NCBI GenBank assembly: GCA_016342685.1
Contig: JAEINU010000001.1
Location: forward strand, 824,169-888,168
DNA from: Bacteroidales bacterium
GTDB taxonomy: Bacteria; Bacteroidota; Bacteroidia; Bacteroidales; UBA12077
Length of the DNA stretch: 64,000 bases
Reading direction: 5' to 3'
Positions 5,578-43,283 of the stretch are shown here, in pieces. Every line of letters starts with the position of its first letter. The stretch's first letter is position 1. The notes under the pieces are model-generated. The model was not told the DNA's origin. It did not search any database and saw only the letters and a program-made list of their open reading frames with translations. A program made the position numbers and the translations under genes.

Positions 5578-8500
5578 ATGAGGAAATACTTTTACTCTAT
5601 TTTTAATCTTGAAGATAACGAAGGTTTAAGTGTATTTTTATTCCTCACTCAATCAATATTTCTGGGAATATTTTATGGTGCTTTTGATGTTGGAGCACAT
5701 GCTTTGTTTTTAACTGTATATCCAGCTTCAATGATTCCTAAAGCCTATATTGTTTCAGGTATTGCTGGTATCATTTTAACATCCTTGTATGCACGAATAC
5801 AGAACCGATTGCCATTTTCAAAATTGGCAATTTTAAATTTGATTTTCATTTCTATCTCAACAGCTATCCTAAGATTGTTATTTCAATTTACTGAAAGCAA
5901 TTGGCTTATTTTTCTAATTTTTATAATGATGGGGCCATTAAATATTATTGCTTTGTTAGGATTTTGGGGTGCCGTTGGTCGAATATTTTCTTTGCGTCAG
6001 GGGAAAAGATTATTTGGATTAATTGATAGCGGGCAAATTTTTGGTGCAATACTCAGTACTTTTGCTATTCCTGTATTGGTAGCAGTTGGATTTCAACAAA
6101 AAAACTTATTGTTTTTAAGTTCTGTAAGTATTGTAGGTGCTTTAATTATGCAATTAATAATATCTGTAAAATTTAACTTAAATCAGGTAATTAGTAAGGC
6201 TACAAAAAAACAAAAAAGACTACCTGTATTGTTAAAAAATAAGTACATCTTATTTATGTCTGTTTTTGTTGTGATGTCGATGTTTACAGCGTTCTTTATT
6301 CAATATTCTTTTCTTTCTGTAACAAAGGAGAATTATCCCGATCACAATGATTTAACTGAGTTCTTGGGAGCATTTACCGGAAGTCTTTTATTGTTTACTT
6401 TCTTGTTTAAAACCTTTTTGTATAGTAAGCTAATGAAAGCTTATGGACTGAAAATAAGTATGATTATATCGCCATTTTTACTTGGAATTTTTACATTATT
6501 AGCTGTTGGTATTGGTTCGCTTTGGGGGTATACCTCAGCATCAGCAAGCTTTATCTTTTTCTTTTTAATAATATCGTTAAGTCGCCTTTTCTCAAAAGCA
6601 CTAAAAGATGGAGTTGAGTATCCTTCTTTTAAAATATTGTATCAATCTTTAAAAGTAGATATAAGGCATGATGTTCAGGCTTATGTTGATGGAACTATTA
6701 ACGAAATTGCAGCATTAGCATCAGGACTCCTTTTGGCAGTTCTTGGATTGTTTGAATTTTTCACTCTTATACATTTTTCGTATGCTTTACTTATTATTTT
6801 AGTTATTTGGTTTTTTATCGCAAGAAAACTTTATTTCGAATATAAAACAACACTTCAGGAATCGCTGGCAGAATTCAAAGTTAAAGAAGAAAGTGTAAAT
6901 GATTTTTCCGAATATATAACAGATAATCTTTGTAATGATTTATCTAAAGATCCAAAATTTATAACTGGTATTGAGTTTAATTCGAAAATACATCCACTGG
7001 AATTCGAGCAAAATATTGATCAGTTAATTAGCCATTCAAATTCACAAATTGAAGAATATGCTATTAGTAAAGTTTCAGATCTTAAGTTAATTGAAAAGTA
7101 TATTAATATAAATAGCTTAAAGGAAGTTCACATTGAAAATGAAAATCTGAAAGAGGTTATTCATCGAGCTCAGAAAACTATAGAAACACCAGGTAATACA
7201 GAATTAATAAAATTATCGAAAGCACGAAGCACCGACGAAAGAGTTTTGGCAGCTTTTTTAATTGGTAAATTTTATAACAAAGAGTTATTTGTTTATTTAA
7301 AAGCTTTAATAAGAGATAATCAATCAACTGTTAAAATTGCTACAATTAGATCTGCAACCAAATTACAATTAGAAAGTCTTTGTCCATATATAATTGATTA
7401 TTTAGATTCTGAAGATATATATTCTTATGCCTATGATTCCATTCTTTTGTTCAAACAAAAGGCCTTGAGTTATTTAGATCTAGTATTTTATAAGTCTGGA
7501 ACAAATCATAGAGTGTTGCTTCGAATTGTTAAGTTAATTGCAGAGATAGGAGGAAATGAAGCAAAAGAGCTCTTAGTTAAAAAACTTGATCATCCGAATG
7601 AAGAGATTCTAAACTTTATATTACTCGGATTGCAAAAGTGTAATTTTGAGGCTGATGAAAACAATATTAATCAAGTCCATCAAATAATTGAAAAGCATAT
7701 TGGTCTTATAGGATGGAATATTGCTGCAAAACAAACTTTGTCTGAATACGATATTTTTGAGGAACTTGAGACTGCATTTAATGAGGAGATAACAGCTAAC
7801 TTTGAAATGTTGTATTTACTTCTTTCGCTTGCTTACGACGCGCAATCTGTTCTACATGTAAAAGAAAATATTGAAAGTGGAACTTCAGAAGGAGCTAGTT
7901 ATGCATTAGAACTTCTTGATTTATTTGTGTCTGAAGAGATTAAACCAAAATTATTTCCAGTTGTTGAGGATATTTCTTTATTAGAAAAAATTAGATTATT
8001 ACAAGATTTTTATCCTATAAAAAAACTGGAAATAGAAGAATTACTATTAGATACAATTAATAGAGATATAAATTTTATAAGTCTTTGGACTAAAGCATGT
8101 GCTATAAAAGCGATTAAAAACTTAAAGAATTCAAAAGTAACAGATGATTTGGTTGCGCATTTATTTAATCCAAATCAGCTATTAAGACAATCTGCTGCCG
8201 TAGTAATATACGAGTTGGATAAAGAAAATTATTATTCAATAGAAAAACGATTAAGTGATACTTATAAAGAGGAACTTGAAGATACATTAGATGAGCGCGA
8301 GGGTTCTGAGAATCATTTGTTATTTGAGAAAACACAATTTTTGAAATCCATTGAGCATTTTGAAAATGTGCCAAGTAAATATTTGTTTTTATTGGCTGAT
8401 GTAATGACAGAGTATAAAACAGAGGATGAGAATTTTTCTTTTTATAATGATTTAGAACTAAACGATAAGCTATTGTTAATAAAAGGAGATAGTGTTAGTT

Positions 8501-8721: not shown

Positions 8722-8758
8722 TCTTAAAAAAAGAAATATAGGCGAAAAATAAATAATT

Positions 8759-10765
8759 ATGTTAACCAAACTTGTTACAAGAATAAAAAGATATTATATG
8801 CGAAAAACAACCATTTTTAAGCAACTAATTTTAAATGTAGTAATTCCAGCAGTTTCAGCTTTGCTTATACTGGGCGTATTTAATTATAATCAAACAAAAT
8901 CGAATATTGTAAATTCTATAAATACAAAGAATAAGATAATTTCTCAGGAAATTATTCACATAATGGAATTTCAGGACGTTGCTCTTGAGGTTATTGAGCA
9001 GAGTTTAAATCCTGTAATGCAAACCTATAGTAGTCAGCTAGTAAATAATTATTTCAGAAACACAGACAATATAGATTTTGCCGATCTAAACAAGATTAGA
9101 AGAGAGTTGGGAATGGATATGGATATGGAAGATATTTATATTATCAATAAGGAAGGAATCGTTGTAAATACCACTTTTGAAAAGGATTTAGGATTGAATA
9201 TATTTTCGTTTGGAGATGATCATAAGGAATTACTTCTGGATATTTTTAAAGAAGGAAAGTTTGTAAACGAAAGATTTACAGTCGAATCAAGTACAAAGCG
9301 CCTGAAGAAGTACACCTATCAAACAACATTAGATGGCGAATATATAATTGAATTGGGAATTTATTCTAGACGTGCCGACGACATTATTAATTTTATAAAA
9401 ACAACCGTTAATAAGCTATCAAAAGATCAACCATCAATTGTAGATGTTGATTTATTTATAAGTAAAGATTACCCAATATCATTAAATAAAGATATTAACT
9501 TAAGTGATGAAGAAATTGTTTTCATGAAGGAACGATTCGAGCAACAAGATTCGACTCAGGTTTTTAAGAAAAGAAACAAACAAAAATTATATTACACATA
9601 TCTGTATATTAAAAGGTCAAATACAGATTTATATGAAGGAGCAGTAGTTCGCATAATTGCAGATCGATCTGGCGAAGACAAATTATTAAGGCGTGAAATG
9701 TTAAAGTTTTTAGCCGTTTTTGGATTAACCCTTGTAGTAGTAGTAGTTTTACTGTACCGAAAAACGAGAGTAATAACACATCCAATTAAGAAACTGGTTG
9801 ATAAAGTAAATAGAGTTACAGATGGACATTTGAATGAGCGAGCAGAAGTAATTGGTAACAATGAGATAGCAACGCTTTCGCAAAAATTCAATTCGATGAT
9901 TGAAGAGTTGGAGAGCTATTACAATGAACTGGAACAAAAAGTAAAAGATAGAACAGCTGAGGTGGTTCAACAGAAAGAATTAATAGAAATTAAGAATAAG
10001 CATATTATGGATAGTATCCATTATGCAAAACGAATTCAGAATGCGATTTTACCTCCCGATACTTATGTTAAACAATTACTTCCAAAATCATTTATTCTAT
10101 ATAAGCCGAAAGATGTTGTTAGTGGTGATTTCTACTGGATGACAAAAAAGAATAATCTGGCAATTTACGCTGCGGTTGATTGTACTGGGCATGGTGTTCC
10201 TGGAGCATTTATGTCAATTGTAGGGCATAATCAATTAAATTATGCTGTTGATGTTAAGAAAGCGCGAAGTGCAAATGTTATTCTGGACTATTTAAATGAA
10301 GGTGTTGTGGAGACATTGCGAGAAAAAGGTCAAGTTGGTAAAATAGCAGTAAAAGATGGAATGGATTTAGCTCTTTGTATAATTGATTATAAAAACATGA
10401 AGCTTCAGTTTGCAGGAGCAAACAACCCATTATGTCTGGTTCGAAATAATGAAATGATTCAGATAAAGGGAAACAAGCAGGCTATTGGGGGAGGATTCGA
10501 TGATGAGCTGCCTAAATTCACAAATCATGAAATGGATTTACAAAAAGGTGATGTGATATACACATTCTCTGATGGATATCCAGATCAGTTTGGAGGGCAC
10601 GATGGACGTAAATTTATGGTTAAAAAGTTTAGAGAATTATTGTTAAAAATTCATAGTCATCCGATTGAAGAGCAGGAAAAAATATTAGAAGATATTTTGG
10701 AAGAATGGAGAGGCAAAGAGGAACAAGTGGATGATATATTGATTATTGGAGTAAAAATTGAATAA
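8759..10765 (+). CDS. Membrane-bound PP2C-type (SpoIIE family) serine phosphatase with extracytoplasmic sensor domain and HAMP linker
   Basis: TM1 (LILNVVIPAVSALLILGVF); ~270-aa periplasmic region; TM2 (LAVFGLTLVVVVVLLY); HAMP; coiled coil; PP2C motifs (SGDFYW, DCTGHGVPGAFMS, DGYPDQFGG). Confidence 0.8.
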   Translation: MLTKLVTRIKRYYMRKTTIFKQLILNVVIPAVSALLILGVFNYNQTKSNIVNSINTKNKIISQEIIHIMEFQDVALEVIEQSLNPVMQTYSSQLVNNYFRNTDNIDFADLNKIRRELGMDMDMEDIYIINKEGIVVNTTFEKDLGLNIFSFGDDHKELLLDIFKEGKFVNERFTVESSTKRLKKYTYQTTLDGEYIIELGIYSRRADDIINFIKTTVNKLSKDQPSIVDVDLFISKDYPISLNKDINLSDEEIVFMKERFEQQDSTQVFKKRNKQKLYYTYLYIKRSNTDLYEGAVVRIIADRSGEDKLLRREMLKFLAVFGLTLVVVVVLLYRKTRVITHPIKKLVDKVNRVTDGHLNERAEVIGNNEIATLSQKFNSMIEELESYYNELEQKVKDRTAEVVQQKELIEIKNKHIMDSIHYAKRIQNAILPPDTYVKQLLPKSFILYKPKDVVSGDFYWMTKKNNLAIYAAVDCTGHGVPGAFMSIVGHNQLNYAVDVKKARSANVILDYLNEGVVETLREKGQVGKIAVKDGMDLALCIIDYKNMKLQFAGANNPLCLVRNNEMIQIKGNKQAIGGGFDDELPKFTNHEMDLQKGDVIYTFSDGYPDQFGGHDGRKFMVKKFRELLLKIHSHPIEEQEKILEDILEEWRGKEEQVDDILIIGVKIE

Positions 10766-10767
10766 TT

Positions 10768-12141
10768 ATGACGGATAAAAATCTGGATGTTTTGTTTTAT
10801 GTTCCATCTAAAAAGGAAAATGTAGATGAGCCTGAAAAACAATGGATTAATAATTTGAAATATATCCTTGAAATTAGTCTAAATCAGGTTTTAAAACGAA
10901 AAGCGAATTGTAACTTAGCATATGAAAACGATCCCATTCAAAATTCTGAAATCTATATTCAATGCTTTTTAGGAACAAATTTTTCTAAAGAAAAAACAAT
11001 TCAGAGTATATATAAAAGCGAAGATTTAAATATCTATCATGTATTAATTAACACTAATTCACTTGAGTTTTCGAATGCATTAATCAACTTAAAAACATAT
11101 CGTTTTTATAATGATCAAACCAGTAAGATTCTTGATTTAACATTGAAGTTAGAAGATATTTTAAATACTACGTGGCTTAAAATATCTGATCTTTCGTTTG
11201 AAATAGGAAAGGTTCTAAGAAAAAGGGATAAAAAGATACCTACAAACAATAAAATATTTATTGCAGAAACGAGTCCTGATCAGACATTGAATAGAAATTA
11301 TTTAGTGCGAGAGTTTAAGCATCAGGGTTACACTGTAGTTCCTGAAGATCAACTTCCTAATGATATTGTAAGTTTTAGTGATCAGGTTCAGAATCTTATG
11401 GAAGAATCGCTTATATCGATACATCTAATTGGGAATAATTATGCTCCTTTGCTTAACAATATTGAGATTTCGAAAGTAGAGTTGCAAAATGATATTTTTA
11501 ATGAAGTTATTGTAAAACCTGAATCTTTAAAACGGAATTTGCAGAGATTAGTACTTATTCCTCCTGCTTTAAAACCAAAATCTGACAAGCAAAAAAAGTA
11601 TATTGATAGTTTTAAACTAAATATTGAACTTCAAAAAAATACAGAGATAATACAATCGCCACTCGAAGATTTTAAATCTATAATTCAGAAAAAAGTAGAT
11701 GGATTTTTTAACGAGAATACTAAGCAAAAAGACGTCTCTATAAACAAATCAAAAAAAAGAACCATTTATATTATTGGCAATGGTACAAATGTAAATGCTA
11801 TAAAGGGTTTGAAAGAAGTACTTAATGAAAAAGGGTTTGATTTTGCTGAAACTATAAATTCTAAAAATAAAATTGAATTAATTAAAGATCATCAAAGAAA
11901 TTTAACTCATTGTGACGGTGTAATTGTTTATTATTCATCAAAAAATGAACAATGGTTAAATAGCAAATTGAGCGACATTGTTAAATCTCCTGGTATTGGA
12001 AGAAACATTCCATTTTTACTAAAAGCTATTTTGATAGATGGATTGCAGGAGCCAAAAATAGAAATGAATATTCGAGATTTACTGATTGTTAATACAAATA
12101 AACCCGATTATCTGAATCATTTATTGGAAAAAATAAAATAA
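10768..12141 (+). CDS. Hypothetical protein with two predicted flavodoxin-fold TIR/SLOG-like modules
   Basis: Beta-alpha-beta patterns KIFIAETSPDQ..GYTVVPEDQ..ISIHLIG and KRTIYIIGNGT..GFDF..CDGVIVYYSS. Start codon is 2 bp after the phosphatase stop, 4 bp before the STAND gene. Domain assignment is tentative. Confidence 0.35.
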   Translation: MTDKNLDVLFYVPSKKENVDEPEKQWINNLKYILEISLNQVLKRKANCNLAYENDPIQNSEIYIQCFLGTNFSKEKTIQSIYKSEDLNIYHVLINTNSLEFSNALINLKTYRFYNDQTSKILDLTLKLEDILNTTWLKISDLSFEIGKVLRKRDKKIPTNNKIFIAETSPDQTLNRNYLVREFKHQGYTVVPEDQLPNDIVSFSDQVQNLMEESLISIHLIGNNYAPLLNNIEISKVELQNDIFNEVIVKPESLKRNLQRLVLIPPALKPKSDKQKKYIDSFKLNIELQKNTEIIQSPLEDFKSIIQKKVDGFFNENTKQKDVSINKSKKRTIYIIGNGTNVNAIKGLKEVLNEKGFDFAETINSKNKIELIKDHQRNLTHCDGVIVYYSSKNEQWLNSKLSDIVKSPGIGRNIPFLLKAILIDGLQEPKIEMNIRDLLIVNTNKPDYLNHLLEKIK

Positions 12142-12145
12142 GATC

Positions 12146-15100
12146 ATGGCAGCTAGCAAAAATAAAAATATCAATGACTTAAATAACCCTTTCCCCGGTT
12201 TACGACCCTTTAAGGTCGAGGAAAGTCATTTGTTTTTTGGAAGAGAAGGTCAAAGTGAGGAAATATTAAATAAACTCTCCGACGAAAAGTTTGTTGCTGT
12301 TATCGGTGCATCTGGTAGTGGTAAATCTTCACTAATTTATTGTGGTTTGGTACCTGTATTATTTGGTGGGTTTGTTGGGGATGCAAATTCAACATGGAAA
12401 ATTATAGCTTCAAGACCTGGTAATTCTCCAATAGATAACCTTGCAAATGCAATTATTGGAAATTCAGAGAATGAAGATAACTCGGAAAACAATTTAATAA
12501 AGCAAAAGTTAAATGCTTCTATCTTACGAAGTAGTTCGAATGGTTTAGTAGAAGCTCTTGATCAAAATTACAATCTTGAAAAAGAAAATGTATTAATAAT
12601 AATTGATCAGTTTGAGGAACTGTTTAGATATAAATCGAGTAAAGGTGATCAATCAACATACAATGAATCGGAAGCTTTTGTAAAACTTTTAATCTCTGCA
12701 AATAAGGCAAAAGATGTTCCAGTTTACATTGTTTTAACGATGCGTTCTGATTTTATTGGCGAATGTTCTCAGTTTCATGAGTTAACTGAGTTAATAAATG
12801 AATCCAATTATTTAGTACCGCAAATGACGCGTGATGATTTTAAAAGCGCAATTGAAGGTCCTGTAGCAGTAGGCGGTGCAGAGATAGAAACACAATTAGT
12901 TCAGCAACTTTTAAATGAAGTAGGCGATAATCCCGATCAGCTTCCAATTTTGCAACATGCGCTAATGCGAACATGGAATTATTGGACAGAACATTCCGAC
13001 ACAGAGCAAGCAATTAGTATTTCGGATTATGCTGCAATTGGAAAAATGGAAAAAGCTTTGTCGGAACATGCGAATGAAGCATTTGATGAACTTAACGAAG
13101 ACGAAAAATTCATATGCGAAAGCATGTTTAAAACAATTACCGAAAAAGGTAATGATAATCGTGGTATTCGTCATCCTACAAGTATTAGTGATATTGCTAT
13201 AATTGCAAAAACTTCTACCGATAAGGTAAAGAAAGTTATAGATCCTTTTAGAGCAGCAGGAAGATCGTTTATTACACCATCGTTTGAAATAGAACTCGAA
13301 AATGATAGTATAATTGATTTATCGCATGAAAGTTTAATGCGTATCTGGAATAAACTACGAATTTGGGTTGAGGAGGAATGGAATGCAGTTCAAATGTATT
13401 CTCGATTATCAGAGGCATCGGAGATGTATCAACTTGGAAAAACTAGTTTATGGCGTCCGCCGGATTTACAATTAGCTTTAAATTGGAGAGATAAACAAAA
13501 GCCTACACTAGCTTGGGCTAAGAGATATAATCCTGCTTTTGAACGAGCAATGGTTTATTTAAAAACCAGCGATAAAGAGTTTAAAGCAGAAGAGGAAAAT
13601 AAGGTTAAGCTTCAGAAGAGACAACTTCGTCGTTCTAAGATATTTGCTATCGTATTGGGATCAGCTGCAATTATTGGAGTGGGTTTAACGATTTATTCAC
13701 AAATGCTTAAAGGAAGAGCCTTAAAACAAGAAAAAATAGCAACAGAGCAAAAGATAGAAGCGGATAAGCAAAAGGAAATTGCTGAAGAACAGACAATTAT
13801 CGCAAAAGAGAAGGAAAAGGAAGCCCTTGAACAGAAGGAAGAAGCGGAAAAACAAAAGTTAATTGCAGAGCAAAAGCAAAAAGAAGCAACACGGAATGCT
13901 GAGATTGCAGAAAGACAAACACAAATAGCAATACAACGGCAAGAAGAAGCAAATCAACAAAGAACTCTTGCAGAAAAGAATGCCGAAGAGGCAAGAAAAC
14001 AAACAGTGGAGGCAGAAAAGGCGCGGCAAGAAGCCTTAAGGAGAAGAATGCTGTCGATTTCGCAAAGTATGGCTGTTAAATCGCAACAAATATCCGACAA
14101 TACACAATTGAAGGCCTTGGTAGCGTATCAGTCTTATTTATTTAATAAAGATTATGATGGACCTAAGCATAACCCAGATGTGTATTTAGGTTTGTATTAT
14201 GCTTTAAAAGGATTAGAAGGTCAGTACTTTAATGCGCTCAATGGACATGAAGGATCTGTTATGGATATTGTTTTTGCACCCGAATCGAATGTCATGTATA
14301 GTACGGGTGGTGATGGAAAAATATTAAAATGGGATATTGGAAGTGATAATAAAAAGTTTGAGGTGATTGCTGAAAATCCATTCGTTCAAAGAGCGTTAGA
14401 AGTTACCAAAGATGGTAAATGGTTGATCTGTGCAACCGATCAAGCGAAGATATTATTGTTTAATCTGGAAAATAATGTTGAACAAAATCAAGAATTAATT
14501 GGGCATACTTCATTTGTAACAGGATTAGCGGTTGCTCCCGATAATTCATTCTTTATTTCATCGAGTAATGATAAGACAATTCGTAAATGGAATTTAAAAA
14601 CATTAGAAAGCGAAGTTCTTGTTACAAGCGATTCAAAAATAAATTCAATAGAAATATCTCCCGATTCAAAAAAAATTGTAGCAGGAACTCAAGATGGAAA
14701 AATTAGTATTTATGATTCTAATAACGAGAATTCTCCTATTGTTATTGAATCAAATTCAAAAAATGCAATATCATCAATATGTTATAATAAAAAAGGAGAC
14801 TGGATTGTTTCAGGTGATTCGAAAGGGAATGTTCAAGTTTGGGATGCAAATAATTATACTCAGATAAAAAATCTGCAAGGGCATAAATCAAGAATTTACG
14901 ATATTGCTTTTAACCCTAACGATTGTTTGCTTGCAACATCAAGTTTAGACGGTACCGTTCGGGTATGGGATTGTACAAATTTAAATAATCAGCCAATAGA
15001 GTTAAGAGATCATGAATCTTGGGTATTATCAATTTCTTTTACCCCAGACGGAAACAAATTAGTTACTTCTAGTAATAAAAAAGATAGAATCTTAATTTGG

Positions 15101-15238: not shown

Positions 15239-15239
15239 A

Positions 15240-16274
15240 ATGAATAGATCTAAATCTTATATATTATTATGTATCCTTATTTTAGCGGGATTCATATCTA
15301 ACGCTCAGCAAACAAATTGTGCATTGAAACTCGACGAAGCTGAAAATCTATATGAAATGGGTGTTTTAGATTCGATACCCGCAATGTTAAGATCATGTAT
15401 AGATGATGGATTTGAGAATGAGGAACTTGCGCGAGCATATAAATTGCTTATTAGAACATATCTATTTGAAGATTATCAGGAAATGGCTGAATTAACAATG
15501 ATGAAATTTCTGAAAAAATTTCCTGAATACGAAATCAAAGCGAATGATCCGATTGAGTTCACATATTTATATAAATCGTATAAAACAGTTCCCTTATATT
15601 CAATAGGTATAATCGGCGGTGTTAATAATTCTTTTATAAGAATTATTGAACCTTATAGCCTAGATAATGCAGAAGATTATTCAGGAGAGTATTCTGTTTT
15701 GGGAGTTGGCTATCAGTTTGGAATCCAGATAAAAAGATATATAAATGATGAGATTGAAATAAACTTGGATGCCTTATTTGTAAATAAGAAGTTTGAGTAT
15801 AATAATGAACAATTAGATTCAAAAGTAAATTATAAAGAGAGTCAATCTCATTTATCATTCCCAATTACTGGAACATATGATTTGGAATATAAAAATGTTA
15901 GACCATTTGTTAGATTTGGTTTTAGTATCGATTATTTGTTAGCGTCGACAGCAAGTGTAGAAAGGTCTTTTACAGGACCTACCTCATTGGAAGCCTTAAC
16001 AGGTCCAGATCTAGATGTTGTTGAGGATAGAAACCCTCTGGATTTTTCTTTACTATTCGGTGTTGGATTAAAATACAATGTAAAAAAGGGATATGTCATT
16101 TTTGATGCGCGATACAATTTAGGTTTAACCAATACTGTGAATAGCGAAAATAGATATGCAAATCCTGAGAAAACATGGTATTATAATTATGTTGATGATG
16201 ATTTTGCTATTAATAATGTATATGTTTCAATTGGATATGTTTATCCATTTTATAGAACCAGAAAACAAAAATAG
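15240..16274 (+). CDS. Outer-membrane beta-barrel protein with N-terminal TPR-like helical segment
   Basis: Signal peptide (ILILAGFISNAQQ); helical hairpin; then alternating-hydrophobic beta strands typical of the Bacteroidota OMP_b-brl family. Start is 1 bp after the STAND gene stop. Confidence 0.5.
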   Translation: MNRSKSYILLCILILAGFISNAQQTNCALKLDEAENLYEMGVLDSIPAMLRSCIDDGFENEELARAYKLLIRTYLFEDYQEMAELTMMKFLKKFPEYEIKANDPIEFTYLYKSYKTVPLYSIGIIGGVNNSFIRIIEPYSLDNAEDYSGEYSVLGVGYQFGIQIKRYINDEIEINLDALFVNKKFEYNNEQLDSKVNYKESQSHLSFPITGTYDLEYKNVRPFVRFGFSIDYLLASTASVERSFTGPTSLEALTGPDLDVVEDRNPLDFSLLFGVGLKYNVKKGYVIFDARYNLGLTNTVNSENRYANPEKTWYYNYVDDDFAINNVYVSIGYVYPFYRTRKQK

Positions 16275-16279
16275 AAGCC

Positions 16280-17473
16280 ATGAATAAATCAAAATATATA
16301 ATACTTTTAATATACATTTTAACCTGCTATGCATGTGATAATTTAGACATCAAGTCAGGTCAATCAGAGTCTTTTATAAAAATATTTGGTTCGTATAGTG
16401 ATGATTATGGTGTAGATATAAAGGAATACGATAATGGTTATTTGATATTAGCAACAGTAAGTCCTAATAATGAAAATACAACAGACATTGCTATTATTAA
16501 AACTGATAAATATGGAAATCAAACAAATATTGAAACAATAGAGAAAAGTGGAAATGATCGTGCTTCAAAACTATTAATAACAAATGATGGAGGTTTTGTT
16601 ATTTTGGGAACATGTGAAGATACTGTTAACAATAACAAAGATATCTATGCTGCTAAGTACACCTCTACTTTAGAAAAAGAATGGACTAAGTCTATTGGTA
16701 AGGTCAGTGAAAATGAGGAAGGAATTTCAATTGCTAAACTATCAGATGGGTATTTAATTGCTGGTAATTCGGACGAAGCCAATGTGGCCAATGGAAATCC
16801 AAGTGGTGTGCAAGATATTGTTTTAATAAAAATAAACGAATCTGGAGATACACAATGGATAAATAGTTTTGGAGGAGTTGCCAAAGATATTGCAGTAGAT
16901 GTAATTGTTACCGATAATGGATTTGTTATAATTGGAACAACAGCAAGTTTTAGTGAACACGGACAGGACAAAGAAAACATAATTGTTATTAAAACAAATT
17001 CGGAAGGAAACGAAACGGATAAGTTAACATATGGAGGTTCATTCGACGACAAAGGTATTGCACTTATAGAATCAGATGCAGGTTATATTCTTCTTGGAAC
17101 CAAAGAGATATTATCAGGAGGAAACTCAGATATTTATTTAGTGTATTTAGGAAATGATATATATGATATTATTGATGAAAAAACATATGGCAGTTCAGGG
17201 GCAAACAATATTGGATCAGCTTTATATTATACAGGTAATAACCTTGTAGTTGCAGGAAGTAATGAAGAAGGAGGTGTAACTTCTGCCTATTTCTTAAAAC
17301 TAGATATTGAAGGAAATATTCTTATTGAAAATACTTTTGGTGGTTACGATGCACAAGTAATAAATGCTATTGAAAAGACAAGCGATGGTGGTTATATTAT
17401 GGTAGGTGTTAGTGGTTTCGGAGGAAATAATCAAATATGCTTATTAAAAGTAAGCTCTGAAGGGGAATTGTAA
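16280..17473 (+). CDS. Beta-propeller lipoprotein with ~50-aa degenerate blade repeats
   Basis: Lipoprotein signal (LTCYACDN). Repeated motifs DGGFVILGT / DGYLIAGNS / DNGFVIIGTT / DAGYILLGTK / DGGYIMVGVS. Confidence 0.5.
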   Translation: MNKSKYIILLIYILTCYACDNLDIKSGQSESFIKIFGSYSDDYGVDIKEYDNGYLILATVSPNNENTTDIAIIKTDKYGNQTNIETIEKSGNDRASKLLITNDGGFVILGTCEDTVNNNKDIYAAKYTSTLEKEWTKSIGKVSENEEGISIAKLSDGYLIAGNSDEANVANGNPSGVQDIVLIKINESGDTQWINSFGGVAKDIAVDVIVTDNGFVIIGTTASFSEHGQDKENIIVIKTNSEGNETDKLTYGGSFDDKGIALIESDAGYILLGTKEILSGGNSDIYLVYLGNDIYDIIDEKTYGSSGANNIGSALYYTGNNLVVAGSNEEGGVTSAYFLKLDIEGNILIENTFGGYDAQVINAIEKTSDGGYIMVGVSGFGGNNQICLLKVSSEGEL

Positions 17474-17516
17474 TTTCTTATATGTTGTTATTATTGGAAA
17501 TGAAAAGTAAAAAGCT

Positions 17517-20500
17517 ATGAAAAAGAGATATCAAATATTCTATATATTATTGTTTGTACTAATATCCAATCTGGGATTTGCACAATTAACTATAGTTAAT
17601 GCACTAGCTGTTGATGGCGATTCAAATGGATTTTATGGAACAGTGGAGATAGAATTTTCTACTGGAGTTAACGATGCTGAAATGCAAACAAGTGCATTGC
17701 CGCGAGACGATTGGGAGTTTTCTGAAGACCCAGAATTTACAACTTTTATTAGACCTAATAGCTTTAGTACAGAAGTTTTTGATATCGCAGTGGCAAATGT
17801 AGCAAATGATAAATATATTCGATTAACATTTCCATCTGAATTTTCTTCGAGTACTGGAACAATTTATTATAGATATATAAATGGTAATCTAGGTTCAGAT
17901 GATGTAACAGATTTTACTACAGGAACAGATGTGTTAGCTGATTTTGCAATTAAAAGTGCCACTGATGGTGCACCGCCTGTTATTTCTGGCGTTGTTTCAA
18001 ATGCAACAGATGCTGGAGTTTTAAAAGTTGGTGAATCGATTGTATTTACCGTCGATTTTGAAGATACTACTAATGATCCTAATTTAACAATACTACCTGC
18101 TCAATATAATAGTGAAGATTTAAACTGGATTACATCAAATGGTGGAGATACTTATACTGGAACGTATACTGTTACAGAAGGAAATGCAGATCAAACCACG
18201 GAATTACAATTAACAGGAGTAACAGCTACAGATGAGTATGGCAATGTGAGTGCATCTTTTAACGGAACTGATGTAGATAAAACGATTGATGCAAATACAC
18301 CTACTATTTCTTCAGTAACATCTGATGCAACTGCTGCTGACACATTAATTGTTGGAGAAACGATTACATTTACTGTTGATACAGAAACAGGACTTACAAT
18401 ATTACCCTTACAGTATAATGGACAAAACTTAAATTGGACAGCTATTAGTGGTGGAGATACCTATCAGGGTATATATACAGTAATGGAAGGTGATCAAGAT
18501 AGAATAACACCATTGCAGTTAACAGGAGTAACAGCTGAAGATGCTGCTGGGAATATTAGCAATACTGAAGATGGTAGTGATGTAGTAAAATCTATCGATG
18601 CAAATACACCATCGATAGTGACAGTTAAATCTGATGCAACAGCAGCTGGAATTTTAAAAGTTGGTGATAAAATAACTTTTACAATTGATGTTGCCACTCC
18701 AGATGGGAACTTAAGTGTAAATCCTTCCAATTATAATGGAGAAACCTTAAGTTGGTCTACGAGTGATGGAGGTGATTCATACATTGGAATATACACTGTA
18801 GTGGATAATGGTGTGGATCAGACTTCAGATTTGCAACTAACAGGAGTAACTTTAACAGATGCTGCAGGTAATGTTAGTAGTTCCGTTGATGGTGTTGATA
18901 TAGAGAAAACAATAGATTCAAATATACCTACTATTTCTTCAGTAACCTCCGATGCAACTGCTGCTGACACATTAATTGTTGGAGAAACGATTACGTTTAC
19001 CGTTGATGTTGTTGATACAGAAACAGGACTTACAATATTACCCTTACAGTATAATGGACAAAACTTAAATTGGACTGACATCAGTAGTGGTGATACTTAT
19101 CAGGGTATATATACCGTAATGGAAGGTGATCAGGATAGAATAACACCATTGCAGTTAACGGGAGTAACAGCTGAAGATGCTGCTGGGAATATTAGCAATA
19201 CTGAAGATGGTAGTGATGTAGTAAAATTAATCGATGCAAATACACCATCGATAGTGACAGTTAAATCTGATGCAACAGAAGCTGGGATTTTAAAAGTCGG
19301 TGATAAAATAACCTTTACAATTGATGTCGCTACTCCAGATGGGAACTTAAGTGTAAATCCTTCCAATTATAATGGAGAAACCTTAAGTTGGTCTACGAGT
19401 GATGGAGGTGATTCATACATTGGAATATACACTGTAGTGGATAATGGTGTGGATCAGACTTCAGATTTGCAACTAACAGGAGTAACTTTAACAGATGCTG
19501 CAGGTAATGTTAGTAGTTCCTTTGATGGTGTTGATATAGTGAAAACAATAGATTCAAATATACCTACTATTTCTTCAGTAACATCTGATGCAACTGCTGC
19601 TGATACATTAATTGTTGGAGAAACAATTACATTTACTGTTGATGTTGAAGATACAGAAACAGGACTTACAATATTACCCTTACAGTATAATGGACAAAAC
19701 TTAAATTGGACTGAGGTTAGTAGTGGTGATACCTATCGGGGTATATATACAGTAATGGAAGGTGATCAAGATAAAATAACACCATTGCAGTTAACAGGAG
19801 TAACAGCTGAAGATGCTGCTGGGAATATTAGCAACACTGAAGATGGTAGTGATGTAGTAAAATCTATCGATGCAAATACACCATCGATAGTGACAGTAAC
19901 ATCTGATGCAACCTTACTAGGAGTTCTAAAAGTTGGAGATAAAATTACATTTACTATAGATGTGGTTACTTCTGATGGAAACCTAACAGTTAATCCTACA
20001 AGCTATAATGGCAGAGCTTTAAATTGGTTTACAGATGATGGAGGCAGCACTTATACAGGAATATACAATGTTACAGAAGGAGATCCAGATCAATCTTCAG
20101 CTTTGCCTTTTACAGGAGTGACCTTAACTGATGTAGCAGGTAATGTAAGTGCAATATATAGTGCAAGTGATGTTGTAAAGACGATTGATGCGAATTCTCC
20201 ATTTATAAATAATTTTGTTGTACCTCAAATTAATATGACAATAGGAAACACTTATACAGCCACGATAAGTGTTAGTTCAGATCCTGATACTTATACTCTT
20301 ACTTCTGGTGAACTATCTGGATTTACGTTACATTCTTTAACAAAAGATGCTGATGATTCTTATTCGGTTGATTTTACTATTACCGATTTAGGATACGACA
20401 TATTAAGTGATAATTCATATTTGATTTCTAATTTGGTGATGTCAGATGCCTCTGGTAATATTTCAAATACTTATTCAAGTTCAATAAGTCAAATAAATGA

Positions 20501-23500
20501 TCCTATTTATACAATTTCTCCTTCGGCAAAAGTTTCAGGAAATTATGATATTTGTGATAAAGATTCAGCAACACTTTTATTTCAGTTAACAGGTAATTCA
20601 CCTTGGGATATTGAGCTAGATACTGGAGTAGGAATAACCACTATTTCAAGTATAAATGCCTCGCCTTATATTTATAAAGTACAAGCGAATGATTTAAATA
20701 ATTTGGTTGATCCTGATACTGCAATATATAAAATTACACAGGTTACAGATGTAAATGGGATTATTGTCAGTGTAGGTTCACCAATCGATAGTGCTACGGT
20801 ATTTGCTTATAAATTACCTGTAGTTGATATTACATATCCTGCGGGAGATCAAACATATAATATAAGTGCAAGTGAAGATACTTTAGTTGGAAATCCTCTT
20901 AATGGGATTTTTACTGGAGCAGGAATTGTATCCTCAAATAACACATTTCATCCTTCATCAGCAGGTCTTGGAGAGCATAATATAGAATATACTTATACAG
21001 ACCCAACCTCAGGATGTTCAAATTTAGACTCAGTAGAGTTAACCGTTATAGAATCAGCAGCAGAAATTGTTTTTCAAAATAACGATACATGGTGGTGTGA
21101 TTATGAAACATCGTTTACTTTAACAGGAGCTGTAGTCGGGAAACCGTCAATAGTTGGAACTTTTTCTTTAGATAAAGATGGAGGCGCAATTAGCTCGACA
21201 GCTGATAATGCTGCCATAATTGATATTAGTTTATTAGTTAGCGGGGGGTCTTACATTGTTAGTTATAGTTATTTTGATGGTGTTCCAATTACATTCATAA
21301 AAAGTTTTACTATTGAATCTGTAAATACAGATATTGGTATTCCAGTTATTAATGATATGTGTGAAGATTATGATACAGTATTTGTAAATGCTTATAATCT
21401 TGCTCCATTAGGAGGTAGTGGTACTTTTACCTTTTCAGGCAGTAGTAGTGACTATTTTATAAATGACCCTAACAATAATAAACTTTATTTTTATCCTGAT
21501 TCGATTGCTCCCGGGGATTATAATTTGAAATATTACTACACAACTCCAAATGGATGTAATAGCGTTGAAACATCACGAGATTTTAAAGTAAATGCCTTAC
21601 CAATTGTTGATATTGTAATGGATAATCTTTATAATATTGAGGGTGGAGTTGAAATTATTTCTGGAACTCCAAATACACCAGCAGGTATATTCTCACCTAG
21701 TTTCATGATTGACAATAGTAACGGAACAGCGAACTTTAACCCATCTATAGTGGGTTTAGGTATTGATACTGCATATTATACTTATACAGATGTTAATGGT
21801 TGTGTTAATCAAGATACCGCAATATTTGAAGTTGATAAAGCAAAAGGACAATTCTATGGATTAGATAAGTTTGATTCTAAAAATCAATATTGTTATTTTA
21901 ATAGTTTATCCGATACAATTAGTGTAATTCCTTTAAATGGGAGTGGTTTTCCAGGTTCATTTTATATTGATAATATATTATTTACTAATAATGTTGGTAA
22001 TGATAGTATAGCATTTTCACCTTCAGATATAATTTCAGGAAACCATGATTTGAGATTTACATATACCAGAGATGGAGTTGAATTTAATCTCGATACAGTC
22101 TTTAATATTGATTCCATTGGGAGTTTAAGTGTTGTTGGACTTGATAGTGAATATTGTCAAGATGATGATAGAAGCATTAATCTTACGGGGATTTCAGATG
22201 GCGCTGGATCAGGTTTAAGTATTTTTGGAGGGGATGGTATTACTGATGTAAATGGAATATTTAAACCAGCTGATGCTAATATAGGAACAAATACGATCTC
22301 ATACACATTTACAAGAGATGATTCTGGGTGCCAAAAGAGTGTTAGTGTAAATAGCCTAATAAATAAAGTGCCAGATATCGGATTTATTCTTGAAAAGACT
22401 TGTATTTCTAGCATTCAAGATTCTGTTTTATTTACTTCAGATACTTTATCATCTGATAATGTGATTAACTGGAATTGGTCTGTAACAGCACTTGGAAATA
22501 GCAGATTAAGTAATGAAATCAATCCTAAATTTTCGTTAACAAAGCAAGAGAAAAACTTTATTTCATTAACTGTTGAAACAGATAAAGCGTGTTCTTCTTC
22601 TCTAGATAGTAGTATTTTTATAGGTTCTGTTGTAGATATAGATTTCTCTTGGGATAAGGAATGCTTTGGCGAAACAGTTACATTCAAGGTTTTAGAAAAA
22701 ACGGATGAGCTAGGGGTCGACAGTGTTCGATGGAATTTTGGAGGAGATGGTTTTTCCGATTTAACAGATATTTATAATCCGCAATATACATATGATGTTC
22801 ATGGAGGGTATGATGTTACATACGAAGAGTTTACAAAATCTTGTGGACTTATTTCAGAAACCCTAAAGATAAATATTCGTCCTTCCATTAGTTTAAGTTC
22901 TGGGGCATATTTCGAAGATTTTGAAGAAGAATCAGATGTGACTGGATGGGCTGTTGATATTTTAGAAAGTACTTCGAACTCATCATGGGAATGGGGTGTT
23001 CCGAATGGAACGCTTATCAATACAGCAGCAGATGGAACTAGTGCGTTTGTTACAAATTTGGATGGGAATTATGCAAATGACGAGAAATCTATTATTTCAA
23101 GTCCTTGTTTTGATTTGTCGGGACTTGAACGACCAATGATATCGTTTGATTTTATTTCTGATCTTCAAGAAGATAGAGATGGAGTTGTAATTGAATATGC
23201 TGTTGATAAAGAAAACTGGAAGATATTAGGATTTGCAGATCAAGGTGTTGATTGGTTTAATACAAACACAAATTACGATGCTATTTTAGGTTCTTCTAGA
23301 GCTTGGACTGGCGATGGCGAAGGTGAATCATTTTCAAGTGAGGATGTAGAATGGAGAAAAGCGAAATATTGGCTCGAAGATGTAGTTGGAGAAGCAGGAG
23401 TAAGGTTTAGGTTTACTCTGGGAACTGATGATGCCGGAGTGAATGAAGGTTTTGGATTTGATAATTTGCGAATTGGTGATAGAAACAGAATGGTATTATT

Positions 23501-24428
23501 AGAGCATTTTGCAAATCCTTCAGAAGAAGATTTTATTAATACTCAGAATATAATCAACAATATTGTAAGTGATAACCCATTAGATGTTATATCAGTTCAG
23601 TTTTTCACAAGTTTCCCTGAAATAAATGATTTAAGTAGTTTTTATACTGCTGGACCAAGTGCAAGATCTTTATATTATGGTGTATCACAAGTTCCTTATT
23701 CTATTGTTGATGGGGGCGATAGAAAATTTAATTATTCTAGTACAAATACTTTAGGAACAGTTGATATTCAGAAAAGAATGCTTGAAGAATCTAAATTTGA
23801 AATAAATGTTAAGCAAGATAATCAAAATGATAAATTAGTTGTTTCTGGATCAATCAAAGCAAAGGAAAATATTTCAGGAATTGGAATAAGTGCAAGAATT
23901 GCAATAGTTGAAAAGACAATTCGTTATGAAGAAAATACTATTCATAATGTACTTAGAGCTATGCTGCCAGATCCGGCAGGGAAGCTAATAGAGAGAGAGT
24001 GGCTAGCTAATGATTCGGTAATGGTATATCAATCTTGGGATTTGCCAGAATTAGTAAATAAAGATAGCTTAATGGCAATCCTTTTCATTCAGGATGAATT
24101 AACAAATGAAATATATCAGGCTGGATTTACTGATAAATTTTCAATTGTTACGTCAAATGAATCAGATTTTATTCAGAATGAAAATACATATAGTATATAC
24201 CCAAATCCAATGTCAGATTATTTTACAATAGTGTTTGGGGTTGAACAAAAAGAAGATCTAGTAATAGACTTATATAATAATATTGGTGTACTTGTTAAAA
24301 CAATGAAGTTAGAGCAAGGTCTTAGTATGATTGAGGTAAATACAGATGACTTGCCTATAGGTATTTATTATGTACAGGTTAAATATCCTAATTATATAAG
24401 TTCACAAAAAATTGTAAAGAGTAATTAA
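17517..24428 (+). CDS. Giant (2303 aa) cell-surface adhesin-like protein: signal peptide, ~8 Ig-like ~105-aa modules, beta-rich region, MAM-like domain, T9SS type-A C-terminal sorting domain
   Basis: Signal peptide. Repeated module TP.I..V.SDAT.AG.LKVG..ITFT.D ... LTGVT..D.AGN.S. MAM-like block GWAVDILESTSNSSWEWGVP...SPCFDL. C-terminus YSIYPNPMSDYFTIVF...GIYYVQVKY matches the Por_Secre_tail pattern. Confidence 0.8.
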   Translation: MKKRYQIFYILLFVLISNLGFAQLTIVNALAVDGDSNGFYGTVEIEFSTGVNDAEMQTSALPRDDWEFSEDPEFTTFIRPNSFSTEVFDIAVANVANDKYIRLTFPSEFSSSTGTIYYRYINGNLGSDDVTDFTTGTDVLADFAIKSATDGAPPVISGVVSNATDAGVLKVGESIVFTVDFEDTTNDPNLTILPAQYNSEDLNWITSNGGDTYTGTYTVTEGNADQTTELQLTGVTATDEYGNVSASFNGTDVDKTIDANTPTISSVTSDATAADTLIVGETITFTVDTETGLTILPLQYNGQNLNWTAISGGDTYQGIYTVMEGDQDRITPLQLTGVTAEDAAGNISNTEDGSDVVKSIDANTPSIVTVKSDATAAGILKVGDKITFTIDVATPDGNLSVNPSNYNGETLSWSTSDGGDSYIGIYTVVDNGVDQTSDLQLTGVTLTDAAGNVSSSVDGVDIEKTIDSNIPTISSVTSDATAADTLIVGETITFTVDVVDTETGLTILPLQYNGQNLNWTDISSGDTYQGIYTVMEGDQDRITPLQLTGVTAEDAAGNISNTEDGSDVVKLIDANTPSIVTVKSDATEAGILKVGDKITFTIDVATPDGNLSVNPSNYNGETLSWSTSDGGDSYIGIYTVVDNGVDQTSDLQLTGVTLTDAAGNVSSSFDGVDIVKTIDSNIPTISSVTSDATAADTLIVGETITFTVDVEDTETGLTILPLQYNGQNLNWTEVSSGDTYRGIYTVMEGDQDKITPLQLTGVTAEDAAGNISNTEDGSDVVKSIDANTPSIVTVTSDATLLGVLKVGDKITFTIDVVTSDGNLTVNPTSYNGRALNWFTDDGGSTYTGIYNVTEGDPDQSSALPFTGVTLTDVAGNVSAIYSASDVVKTIDANSPFINNFVVPQINMTIGNTYTATISVSSDPDTYTLTSGELSGFTLHSLTKDADDSYSVDFTITDLGYDILSDNSYLISNLVMSDASGNISNTYSSSISQINDPIYTISPSAKVSGNYDICDKDSATLLFQLTGNSPWDIELDTGVGITTISSINASPYIYKVQANDLNNLVDPDTAIYKITQVTDVNGIIVSVGSPIDSATVFAYKLPVVDITYPAGDQTYNISASEDTLVGNPLNGIFTGAGIVSSNNTFHPSSAGLGEHNIEYTYTDPTSGCSNLDSVELTVIESAAEIVFQNNDTWWCDYETSFTLTGAVVGKPSIVGTFSLDKDGGAISSTADNAAIIDISLLVSGGSYIVSYSYFDGVPITFIKSFTIESVNTDIGIPVINDMCEDYDTVFVNAYNLAPLGGSGTFTFSGSSSDYFINDPNNNKLYFYPDSIAPGDYNLKYYYTTPNGCNSVETSRDFKVNALPIVDIVMDNLYNIEGGVEIISGTPNTPAGIFSPSFMIDNSNGTANFNPSIVGLGIDTAYYTYTDVNGCVNQDTAIFEVDKAKGQFYGLDKFDSKNQYCYFNSLSDTISVIPLNGSGFPGSFYIDNILFTNNVGNDSIAFSPSDIISGNHDLRFTYTRDGVEFNLDTVFNIDSIGSLSVVGLDSEYCQDDDRSINLTGISDGAGSGLSIFGGDGITDVNGIFKPADANIGTNTISYTFTRDDSGCQKSVSVNSLINKVPDIGFILEKTCISSIQDSVLFTSDTLSSDNVINWNWSVTALGNSRLSNEINPKFSLTKQEKNFISLTVETDKACSSSLDSSIFIGSVVDIDFSWDKECFGETVTFKVLEKTDELGVDSVRWNFGGDGFSDLTDIYNPQYTYDVHGGYDVTYEEFTKSCGLISETLKINIRPSISLSSGAYFEDFEEESDVTGWAVDILESTSNSSWEWGVPNGTLINTAADGTSAFVTNLDGNYANDEKSIISSPCFDLSGLERPMISFDFISDLQEDRDGVVIEYAVDKENWKILGFADQGVDWFNTNTNYDAILGSSRAWTGDGEGESFSSEDVEWRKAKYWLEDVVGEAGVRFRFTLGTDDAGVNEGFGFDNLRIGDRNRMVLLEHFANPSEEDFINTQNIINNIVSDNPLDVISVQFFTSFPEINDLSSFYTAGPSARSLYYGVSQVPYSIVDGGDRKFNYSSTNTLGTVDIQKRMLEESKFEINVKQDNQNDKLVVSGSIKAKENISGIGISARIAIVEKTIRYEENTIHNVLRAMLPDPAGKLIEREWLANDSVMVYQSWDLPELVNKDSLMAILFIQDELTNEIYQAGFTDKFSIVTSNESDFIQNENTYSIYPNPMSDYFTIVFGVEQKEDLVIDLYNNIGVLVKTMKLEQGLSMIEVNTDDLPIGIYYVQVKYPNYISSQKIVKSN
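18300..20198 (+). repeat. Three tandem near-identical coding repeats (627, 636, 636 bp; each encodes two Ig-like modules) inside the adhesin gene
   Basis: Identical antisense ORFs at 18494-18730 and 19130-19366 (offset 636). Direct reading shows >90% nucleotide identity between units starting at 18300, 18927 and 19563. Unit 3 diverges after ~19900. Confidence 0.85.
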
Positions 24429-24431
24429 TAA

Positions 24432-24463
24432 AACAAGGGCATCTAAGTGGATGCCCTTGTTTT
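24432..24463. terminator. Bidirectional rho-independent terminator between convergent genes
   Basis: Perfect 12-bp stem AACAAGGGCATC / GATGCCCTTGTT with 6-nt loop, flanked by A-run upstream and T-run downstream. Confidence 0.7.
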
Positions 24464-24464
24464 A

Positions 24465-25019: not shown

Positions 25020-25030
25020 TAATAAGTTTA

Positions 25031-25513: not shown

Positions 25514-25566
25514 TGGTCTATTTTTTGTTATATGACACTTATAATGTGCTTATTATTACAAATTGT

Positions 25567-42474: not shown

Positions 42475-42502
42475 ATAAGGGTAGGTTTTTTTAGTTTGTA
42501 GA

Positions 42503-42534
42503 AAAGGAGGACATTATATTGTTCTCCTTTTTTA
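42503..42534 (+). terminator. Rho-independent terminator after MCP1
   Basis: AGGAGGACA / TGTTCTCCT stem followed by a T6 run. Confidence 0.55.
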
Positions 42535-43265: not shown

Positions 43266-43283
43266 CCAAATAATATTCGAATT

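Follow-up and report, generated by a model that had tools for sequence, protein, structure and literature searches.

A conserved gene cluster of Bacteroidota with a membrane-anchored STAND ATPase, a TIR-like protein and a giant type IX secretion cargo

STAND/NLR (NOD-like receptor) switches, like TIR-like domains, are commonly taken for parts of cytoplasmic immunity. We describe here a seven-gene cluster in which such a pair is conserved like a housekeeping system; it occupies positions 5578 to 24428 of a 64,000-nucleotide (nt) stretch of contig JAEINU010000001.1 from a Bacteroidales metagenome-assembled genome (MAG). This whole stretch is called the window, coordinates are positions in it, and g1 to g7 are our names for the seven open reading frames (ORFs) of the cluster from left to right. 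Three 2026 preprints, including bioRxiv 10.64898/2026.09.04.749371, have identified DUF4062 (renamed NIR or TeTIR) as a TIR-like NADase with a catalytic Glu, which is E97 in KpSwz, E108 in PsAvs2 and E1008 in TEP1. According to these preprints DUF4062/NIR is the effector in Avs2, Swarozyc, Vulcan, Vesta and human TEP1, and E-to-Q mutants were found to be inactive in three DUF4062 systems (bioRxiv 10.64898/2026.09.04.749371).

The closest described counterparts of g3 and g4 are the TEP1/NWD proteins, with the domain order TeTIR(DUF4062)-NACHT-WD40, and Avs2-NIR, with the order DUF4062-STAND-TPR. There, as in our cluster, a DUF4062/TIR-like module lies directly upstream of a STAND NTPase, and g4 also carries C-terminal WD40 repeats. 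The pair differs from these systems in that g3 is a separate three-domain protein in which Gln replaces the catalytic Glu, that g4 has an nSTAND1 domain where TEP1/NWD has NACHT, together with a transmembrane (TM) helix and a long stalk predicted to put the WD40 repeats outside the cytoplasm, and that both genes belong to a conserved cluster which also encodes a transporter, outer-membrane proteins and a cargo of the type IX secretion system (T9SS). The nSTAND1 conflict systems (Kaur et al. 2020/2021, eLife) use the same NTPase family as g4, in which the Walker motifs are intact; g4, however, has neither a fused effector nor an effector-associated domain, and its cluster is apparently vertical, lies among housekeeping genes and is strongly conserved in sequence. 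A further point of comparison is the family of NTT-HEAT-cNBD fusions (cNBD, cyclic-nucleotide-binding domain), whose function was called unknown by Major, Embley & Williams 2017 (PMC5381601). Its three-part architecture is identical to that of g1, but the only partner reported for it is a separate cNBD gene, whereas g1 regularly occurs together with genes for a STAND ATPase and a TIR-like protein.

More distant likenesses concern the predicted topology of g4. Mycobacterium tuberculosis PknD also joins a cytoplasmic enzyme through one TM helix to an extracytoplasmic beta-propeller, but has no STAND NTPase, and domain II of TolA resembles g4 in being a long stalk, again with no STAND NTPase. A periplasmic WD40 domain has a precedent in T9SS biology in PorE (PMC5053529, PMC12773672), which likewise has no STAND NTPase; sequence homology with g4 is claimed for none of the three. 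Literature searches combining the relevant terms (nSTAND1, NTT-HEAT, DUF4062+STAND, T9SS+STAND+WD40+TIR) in open-access papers and preprints returned no published description of the cluster, nor is it mentioned in the defining papers on nSTAND1, on NTT-HEAT fusions and on DUF4062 NADases. An earlier note on this DNA, made from the sequence by itself, had not recognised the combination as a described system, and within that literature this holds. We could not find a description of any STAND/TIR-like signalling module with this topology and partner set, and there is a real chance that the cluster is categorically new.

Our reading, to which we give a probability of about one half, is that the cluster encodes a conserved, vertically inherited, trans-envelope signalling module with a membrane-anchored STAND ATPase as its core, dedicated to a giant, fast-evolving T9SS surface protein. 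The predicted extracytoplasmic sensor and the naturally inactivated "NADase" suggest that the same protein logic has been reused, probably in a non-immune role, at the cell envelope. The cluster further offers a concrete partner set for the NTT-HEAT-cNBD family, the function of which has been unknown since 2017, and it would represent an apparatus that runs from the inner to the outer membrane and serves a single giant T9SS surface protein, itself diversifying rapidly. Its carriers comprise several hundred environmental Bacteroidota species, with cultured representatives in Chryseosolibacter, Dawidia, Parachryseolinea, Fulvivirga and Mangrovivirga.

A check of the ORFs in the window placed all seven on the + strand at exactly the positions that the earlier note had listed, with intergenic gaps of 37, 2, 4, 1, 5 and 43 nt in order from g1 to g7, which bears out its picture of seven co-directional, closely packed genes. 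The cluster consists of the following features, each given with the evidence for its assignment.

5578-8721, + strand: g1, predicted NTT-HEAT-cNBD fusion (HEAT_2, 12 TM helices, family profile, Foldseek)
8759-10765, + strand: g2, HAMP-PP2C phosphatase of the SpoIIE type (Pfam SpoIIE and HAMP, TM prediction)
10768-12141, + strand: g3, three-domain TIR-like protein, predicted to be cytoplasmic (family profile, AlphaFold2 (AF2) fold, probing with hidden Markov models (HMM))
12146-15238, + strand: g4, nSTAND1 ATPase with TM helix, stalk and WD40 domain (Pfam nSTAND1 and WD40, TM prediction)
15240-16274, + strand: g5, outer-membrane beta-barrel (OMP_b-brl_2, 64 bits)
16280-17473, + strand: g6, SBBP-type beta-propeller lipoprotein (invariant Cys19, CylK propeller profile at E 5e-27)
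17517-24428, + strand: g7, Ig-like-repeat T9SS cargo of 2303 amino acids (aa) (Por_Secre_tail, TIGR04183)
24426-24467, unstranded: terminator-like bidirectional hairpin (stem of 19 pairs, 6 of them G-C; overlaps the stop codon of g7)

The predicted sites of the products are the inner membrane, the periplasm, the outer membrane and the cell surface, in keeping with the earlier claim that every envelope layer is covered. Pfam, profile searches and TM prediction agree with the three inner-membrane assignments made at that time, namely a transporter-like/HEAT/cyclic nucleotide (cNMP)-like g1, a HAMP-PP2C g2 and a TM-anchored STAND protein g4. The hairpin lies directly after g7 and is the sole convincing terminator-like structure, as no convincing internal terminator was found inside the cluster. 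A scan for sigma-70 promoters gave a signal no higher than the shuffled expectation, and the Bacteroidota -7 motif TAnnTTTG has no conserved site upstream of g1 in the 11 loci compared. Rfam gave 0 matches over the entire window, and there are no paralogues of g1 to g6 elsewhere within it. The base composition of the cluster is about that of its flanks, and the g1 protein is an exact match to locus tag JEY96_03360 of a Bacteroidales MAG.

The evidence that these genes belong together comes from comparison of their neighbourhoods, for which one genome per GTDB species was scanned. A g3 relative is present in 532 GTDB species, and the best 80 loci among them, each from a different assembly, come from Bacteroidales MAGs and from Cytophagales, including the cultured Chryseosolibacter histidini, Dawidia cretensis and Parachryseolinea silvisoli. 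Neighbourhoods with 65%, 40% and 34% g3 identity contain all seven genes, and those with 28-31% contain six, the PP2C gene being absent. The order g1-(g2)-g3-g4-g5-g6 is found in every sufficiently long locus bar one, protein sizes are very constant, g6 is followed in 17/17 sampled loci by a giant ORF (>1300 aa) that starts with a signal peptide, and from g3 to g6 neighbouring genes are separated, or overlap, by only a few nt in both orders. The flanking genes vary by clade and are of a housekeeping kind (queA, aroA, aroC, aroK, parC). Because the same order recurs with different flanks in two Bacteroidota orders, Bacteroidales and Cytophagales, the seven genes are confirmed as a real conserved cluster, beyond chance. 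The possibility raised in the earlier note that the genes are never syntenic elsewhere, which a comparison across Bacteroidota was to decide, fails decisively.

The cluster is apparently vertically inherited, at a conserved chromosomal position and in no defence island. When all seven proteins were compared with PADLOC-DB 2.0, a library of 2023 that is older than the DUF4062 defence systems, none of the three matches obtained was more than marginal (E > 5e-4) or concerned a related model. A typical mobile defence system is argued against because the NTPase is strongly conserved, the position is conserved and there are neither defence neighbours nor PADLOC matches of note; housekeeping flanks and apparently vertical inheritance likewise speak against the conflict module that the earlier note had considered.

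The proteins of the cluster evolve at very different rates. Relative to the closest relative (locus L001), identity is 94% for the g4 ATPase, 93% for the g1 TM domain, 91-94% for g2 and 87% for the g4 WD40 domain, and falls to 65% for g3, 63% for g5, 43% for g6 and ~52% for g7, the last of which aligns in two blocks that flank a non-collinear segment of ~800 aa. The value for g7 contrasts with 92-93% for g2 and g4. Identity to L001 thus drops from the cell interior outward. Across orders the g4 ATPase is still 57-62% identical, and g3 goes down to 27-30%.

The putative core of the module is g4, which consists of an nSTAND1 domain (aa 15-429), a TM helix (aa 499-517), a stalk rich in E, A, K and Q (about aa 518-635) and a WD40 propeller (aa ~750-997). 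With nSTAND1 (PF20703) at 323.6 bits (cut-off 27.1) and WD40 at 156.8 bits, g4 belongs to the nSTAND1 family, and the TEP1 beta-propeller model is one of many beta-propeller models in Pfam that match its WD40 region. The architecture was compared in 71 distinct full-length orthologues. Walker A (GASGSGKS) and Walker B (LIIIDQFEE) are kept in at least 70 of these, and all 71 have a TM helix near aa 500, one of them with an extra hydrophobic segment. In the 15 residues on either side of this helix, Lys and Arg together average 6.1 before it vs 2.8 after it, and the charged stalk that follows has a median length of 118 aa (range 71-149, and ~114-129 aa within Bacteroidales). Because the ATPase must face ATP, a TM helix lies in between and the charge bias is of the N-in type, we predict a periplasmic position for the WD40 propeller. 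A stalk in the form of one unbroken helix (118 x 1.5 A) would measure ~18 nm. Features by which nSTAND1 proteins of conflict systems are recognised were not found, since the NTPase starts at aa 15 and leaves no room for an N-terminal effector, and meaningful PADLOC matches and defence-type flanks are missing as well. Two loci from complete or near-complete genomes show g4 broken exactly at the TM helix: in L091 (Mangrovivirga cuniculi CP028923.1; L091:5269-8456 and 10001-13125) there is a frameshift just before the helix, and g1 is also split, and in L092 (L092:10001-13288) an in-frame stop codon lies just after the helix. Faulty assembly of the low-complexity stalk could explain such breaks, as could pseudogenes or a protein that is genuinely made in two pieces.

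The gene directly upstream, g3, encodes a protein that in the window has no Pfam match over cut-off and no TIR_2 match, DUF4062 (PF13271) being reached at E 0.07. Its family contains 57 clusters at 90% identity in a word-indexed search and 921 clusters at 50% identity in an exhaustive profile search (E<=1e-30). The AF2 model (pLDDT 82) has three alpha/beta domains, of which the first (aa 1-155) is TIR-like and degenerate, the second (aa 160-316) resembles DUF4062/NIR, and the third covers aa 329-457. Foldseek relates the model to plant TIRs, SPARTA TIR-APAZ and TIR-STING, suggesting a TIR/NDT fold. The family profile matched designed proteins only among PDB sequences, which offered no solved DUF4062 chain for a residue-level alignment; the catalytic position was located by HMM probing with point mutants, combined with natural relatives that bear a Glu. 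The probe was a consensus-like DUF4062 sequence, which was accepted for this use because it scores 113 bits across the whole model. In its motif S.TE.E, mutation of the second Glu (model position 78) costs more bits than mutation of the first and also truncates the TIR_2 alignment. When Gln240 of g3 is changed to Glu, the HMM alignment lengthens to end at residue 240, which corresponds to model position 78. This maps Gln240 (nt 11485-11487) to the position of the catalytic Glu of the DUF4062 NADases.

Of 261 members of the g3 family, 250 have Gln at position 240, 10 have Glu and one has Leu. The ten Glu240 members share the motif S..E.E[NYSH], often followed by xIA, in agreement with the DUF4062 motif. 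Among the Glu-bearing relatives scanned, 6/7 score over the Pfam cut-off for DUF4062 (five of them full three-domain proteins), with alignments that extend to model positions 78-82, and three also pass TIR_2 in the N-terminal domain (30.9-37.9 bits, cut-off 28). The N-terminal TIR-like domain has kept its canonical Glu (motif C..EL) only in some distant clades; another residue stands in its place in the Cyclobacteriaceae-type clade, and the clade of the window has lost the motif by deletion. In the window, g3 thus lacks the catalytic Glu of the DUF4062 NADases as well as that of the canonical TIR_2 NADases. The best-conserved residues (R181, E182, G222, Q240, R260, E300 and K303) nevertheless lie in the DUF4062-like domain, and W396 and K406 of the third domain are invariant in 261/261. 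We conclude that g3 probably belongs to the TIR/DUF4062 lineage and is most probably a non-NADase, and that it is probably a non-catalytic adaptor or ligand sensor rather than an NAD-depleting effector. Because the residues around the former active site are strictly conserved, the alignment suggests that binding of a ligand or partner has been retained. An active NAD-depleting effector, which we considered as a candidate function, is rejected on the catalytic-residue evidence (Gln in 250/261). The TIR-like call of the earlier note agrees with the fold of the model, and a conflict reading through NAD depletion is weakened, as the catalytic Glu is absent in both TIR-like domains.

The first gene of the cluster, g1, encodes a protein with an NTT domain (an ATP/ADP-translocase-like MFS domain, aa 16-432), a HEAT solenoid (aa ~443-941) and a cNMP-binding-like beta-barrel (aa ~943-1047). 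Twelve TM helices are supported by sequence prediction and by the topology of the AF2 model (pLDDT 80, pTM 0.69), and Pfam finds HEAT_2 at 37.3 bits. A profile built from 31 homologues matches, among PDB sequences, alphaRep/HEAT proteins (E 3e-21), the cNMP-binding domains of cGMP-dependent kinase (E 2e-14) and the solved ATP/ADP translocators NTT1 (E 1.6e-8). The five best Foldseek matches of the model are AtNTT1 and Chlamydia pneumoniae NTT1, with target-normalised TM-scores of at most 0.73, and PF03219, PF00027 and PF13646 are annotated on g1 homologues. Because of these profile and Foldseek matches, g1 is, as far as sequence and model can tell, a member of the NTT-HEAT-cNBD fusion family, with the same domain architecture. 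As a separate observation, residue 283 of g1 (6424-6426) is Ser or Thr in 92% of the clusters with a PP2C gene and Asp in 42/47 of those without. The pattern is as expected for a phospho-site swapped for a phosphomimetic residue, but phylogeny confounds it, and for this reason neither S283 nor other Ser/Thr positions that track g2 are relied on as phosphatase substrates.

The three genes at the end of the cluster encode the presumptive outer-membrane and surface part. The g5 protein has a signal peptide, a conserved N-terminal domain of ~100 aa and a beta-barrel; the N-terminal domain contains two Cys, C27 and C53, that are invariant in the alignment, and is read as helical. Against PDB the g5 profile gave nothing significant. 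The barrel announced in the earlier note is supported by OMP_b-brl_2, and the TPR region that it had named with the barrel is not, since Pfam finds no TPR in g5 even at E<=5. Its beta-propeller lipoprotein is well founded: besides the invariant Cys and the CylK propeller match, g6 reaches 34.9 bits with the NCBIfam model Lepto_SBBP_lipo, which is under the cut-off of that model. For g7, Por_Secre_tail (38.4 bits, cut-off 27), TIGR04183 (32.9 bits, cut-off 23) and a hydrophobic N-terminus or signal peptide identify a T9SS cargo of type A, with the C-terminal sorting domain at aa 2227-2300 (nt 24195-24416). The MAM domain proposed along with it is not detected by Pfam even at E<=5, Filamin and Big_12 matches are marginal, and g7 contains no tandem repeats. 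Its counterparts in other loci range from 1621 to 6122 aa, have Por_Secre_tail where Pfam data exist and differ in their repeats (PKD, cadherin, Big_5, Big_12). It is the hypervariable member of the cluster.

The phosphatase gene g2 is the accessory member and is dispensable in most lineages. Of the loci long enough to show its slot, 24 carry g2 and 58 do not. The carriers span more than one clade, and most Cytophagales loci, as well as one clade of Bacteroidales, lack the gene. The protein has a TM helix (aa 23-41), a periplasmic domain of ~270 aa, a second TM helix (aa 314-332), HAMP and PP2C. SpoIIE at 62.9 bits and HAMP at 45.4 bits (cut-off 25 for each) place it in the PP2C and HAMP families, and Pfam finds no named sensor fold in its periplasmic domain even at E<=5. 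The SiaA model NF038263 scores 257.3 bits over aa 307-667 only, against an equivalog cut-off of 700, so g2 is not SiaA; it has the TM, HAMP and PP2C parts in common with SiaA of SiaABCD, and the alignment covers its C-terminal half. Unlike the SiaABCD, RsbU and SpoIIE partner switches, the cluster lacks a SiaB-like kinase, a SiaC/STAS-like substrate and a cyclase gene. A controlling role for the PP2C phosphatase, as the earlier note suggested, does not fit a gene that is not part of the core. In one MAG labelled Chlorobi at NCBI (locus L093), a second HAMP-PP2C gene (L093:19104-20115) follows g6 where the giant cargo usually starts, and the contig ends soon after.

Gene order, sequence conservation, domain content, predicted topology and loss of the catalytic Glu are the ground on which we place a working scheme. 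The outer part of the module would consist of the surface protein g7, the barrel g5, the periplasmic domain of which is probably disulfide-bonded, and the propeller lipoprotein g6, with contacts among them and with g4 that we infer. The periplasmic WD40 domain of g4, on its charged helical stalk of ~18 nm, would read the state of this outer part, and the signal would pass the inner membrane through the single TM helix and cause the nSTAND1 ATPase to switch or oligomerise. The translationally coupled g3 could then act as a non-catalytic adaptor or as a nucleotide sensor, with NAD or an ADP-ribose (ADPR)-like compound as its conceivable ligand. Output would be through g1, whose exchange of nucleotides, its putative substrate, across the inner membrane would be controlled in this way, and g2 would be an optional second periplasmic input in some lineages, including that of the window.

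Several points weigh against this scheme. The direction of signalling, from outside to inside, is a guess, as the sequence would fit a STAND switch that controls the adhesin no less than an adhesin that reports to the switch, and the periplasmic placement of the WD40 domain is a prediction from hydropathy and charge bias. The mapping of Gln240 to the catalytic Glu combines low-scoring HMM alignments with the motif agreement in Glu-bearing relatives and involves no solved structure. In locus L082, the sole exception to the conserved order, g1 does not adjoin the cluster, and in L093 the second PP2C gene stands after g6. Moreover, nSTAND1 and DUF4062 are otherwise known from conflict systems, and g3 evolves fast (65% identity to L001), possibly as the result of an arms race.

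The last two points are also what makes an NLR-like anti-phage or conflict system worth weighing, in which a phage or other invader would be sensed by the WD40 domain or the surface protein, the STAND protein would oligomerise, and g3 or the transporter would deplete or leak NAD or ATP and cause abortive infection. The nSTAND1 family was defined in conflict systems, DUF4062/NIR domains serve as NADase effectors in Avs2, Swarozyc, Vulcan and Vesta, the exposed g6 and g7 evolve fast along with g3, the domain content of g7 differs between genomes, and 10/261 g3 relatives do have Glu at the catalytic position. We nevertheless consider such a system distinctly unlikely, mainly because of the Gln at this position in 250/261 members, a substitution that kills activity in the three systems where it was tested, and because of the housekeeping-like inheritance of the cluster, with housekeeping flanks, a conserved chromosomal position and 0 PADLOC matches beyond the marginal ones. 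In the N-terminal TIR-like domain, too, most clades have lost the Glu or had it deleted, the ATPase is, unlike diversifying immune STANDs, 57-62% identical across orders, and none of the 80 best loci shares an assembly with another. A different use of the same parts would be an apparatus for assembly, anchoring or mechanical coupling of the T9SS cargo, where g5 and g6 hold g7, the stalk of g4 tethers them to the inner membrane, and the ATPase and the NTT-like protein supply or gate energy. It would account for the giant cargo gene that always follows g5 and g6, for the OMP_b-brl_2 type of the g5 barrel, for a Bacteroidales stalk of ~114-129 aa, as a spacer matching the width of the periplasm would have, and for the resemblance of g1 to an ATP/ADP exchanger. 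We hold it to be unlikely, as STAND NTPases are known as switches, not motors, type-A T9SS cargo is normally not known to need a private outer-membrane partner, and g3 and the cNBD-like domain of g1 look regulatory rather than structural. Finally, the gaps of 37 nt before g2 and 43 nt before g7 are slightly wider than the others and might point to a chance juxtaposition of unrelated genes or of two operons, g1-g4 and g5-g7. This is extremely improbable, since order and spacing are kept across two orders and down to 27-30% g3 identity while the flanks differ.

The trans-envelope signalling module that we favour can also be put in a more specific form, which is tentative and rather unlikely as a whole. 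The cluster would then encode the first outside-in bacterial NLR-like receptor, in which a periplasmic WD40 domain watches a polymorphic surface protein for contact, kin or damage, and the ATPase gates an NTT-type ATP/NAD exchanger by way of a TIR/NIR pseudo-enzyme, which binds a nucleotide but does not cleave it. If true, it would be the first functional context for the NTT-HEAT-cNBD family, which also occurs in Cyanobacteria, Chlamydiae and oomycetes, and might tie this family to traffic of queuosine precursors. The latter idea comes from the gene upstream of the cluster.

4510-5262, - strand: queuosine-precursor transporter of the Vut_1/YhhQ family (Vut_1 157.8 bits; TIGR00697 121.1 bits, cut-off 50.95)

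In 18 loci, which represent three deep clades, a divergent queuosine-precursor transporter is found 230-330 nt upstream of g1, and in 36 Cytophagales loci the same place is taken by a co-directional QueA gene (equivalog at 344-348 bits), so that a queuosine-related gene (also at L035:5390-6577 and L051:5318-6523) stands directly upstream of g1 in 54/66 related loci. The transporter is a recurrent neighbour that is possibly associated with the cluster, and these neighbours may be a coincidence or a hint to the substrate of g1.

On the other side, three genes convergent with g7 occupy 24465-26136 on the - strand, namely an ECF (extracytoplasmic function) sigma factor (25567-26136), a zf-HC2 anti-sigma factor (25031-25513) and a weak Metal_resist/Spy-like match (24465-25019). 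They are followed by two paralogous genes for prolyl-oligopeptidases (S9) of 694 aa, at 26289-28373 and 29069-31153 on the - strand, with a YdeI/OmdA-family gene between them. A PAS histidine kinase gene is located at 35885-37888, and beyond it the + strand from 40402 to 51900 contains four methyl-accepting chemotaxis protein genes, the sensor domains of which are PDC, HBM, dCache and CZB.

40402-42474, + strand: chemotaxis protein gene (domain scan)
44785-46782, + strand: chemotaxis protein gene (domain scan)
47357-49420, + strand: chemotaxis protein gene (domain scan)
49876-51900, + strand: chemotaxis protein gene (domain scan)

Such a chemoreceptor-rich stretch is unusual for Bacteroidota.

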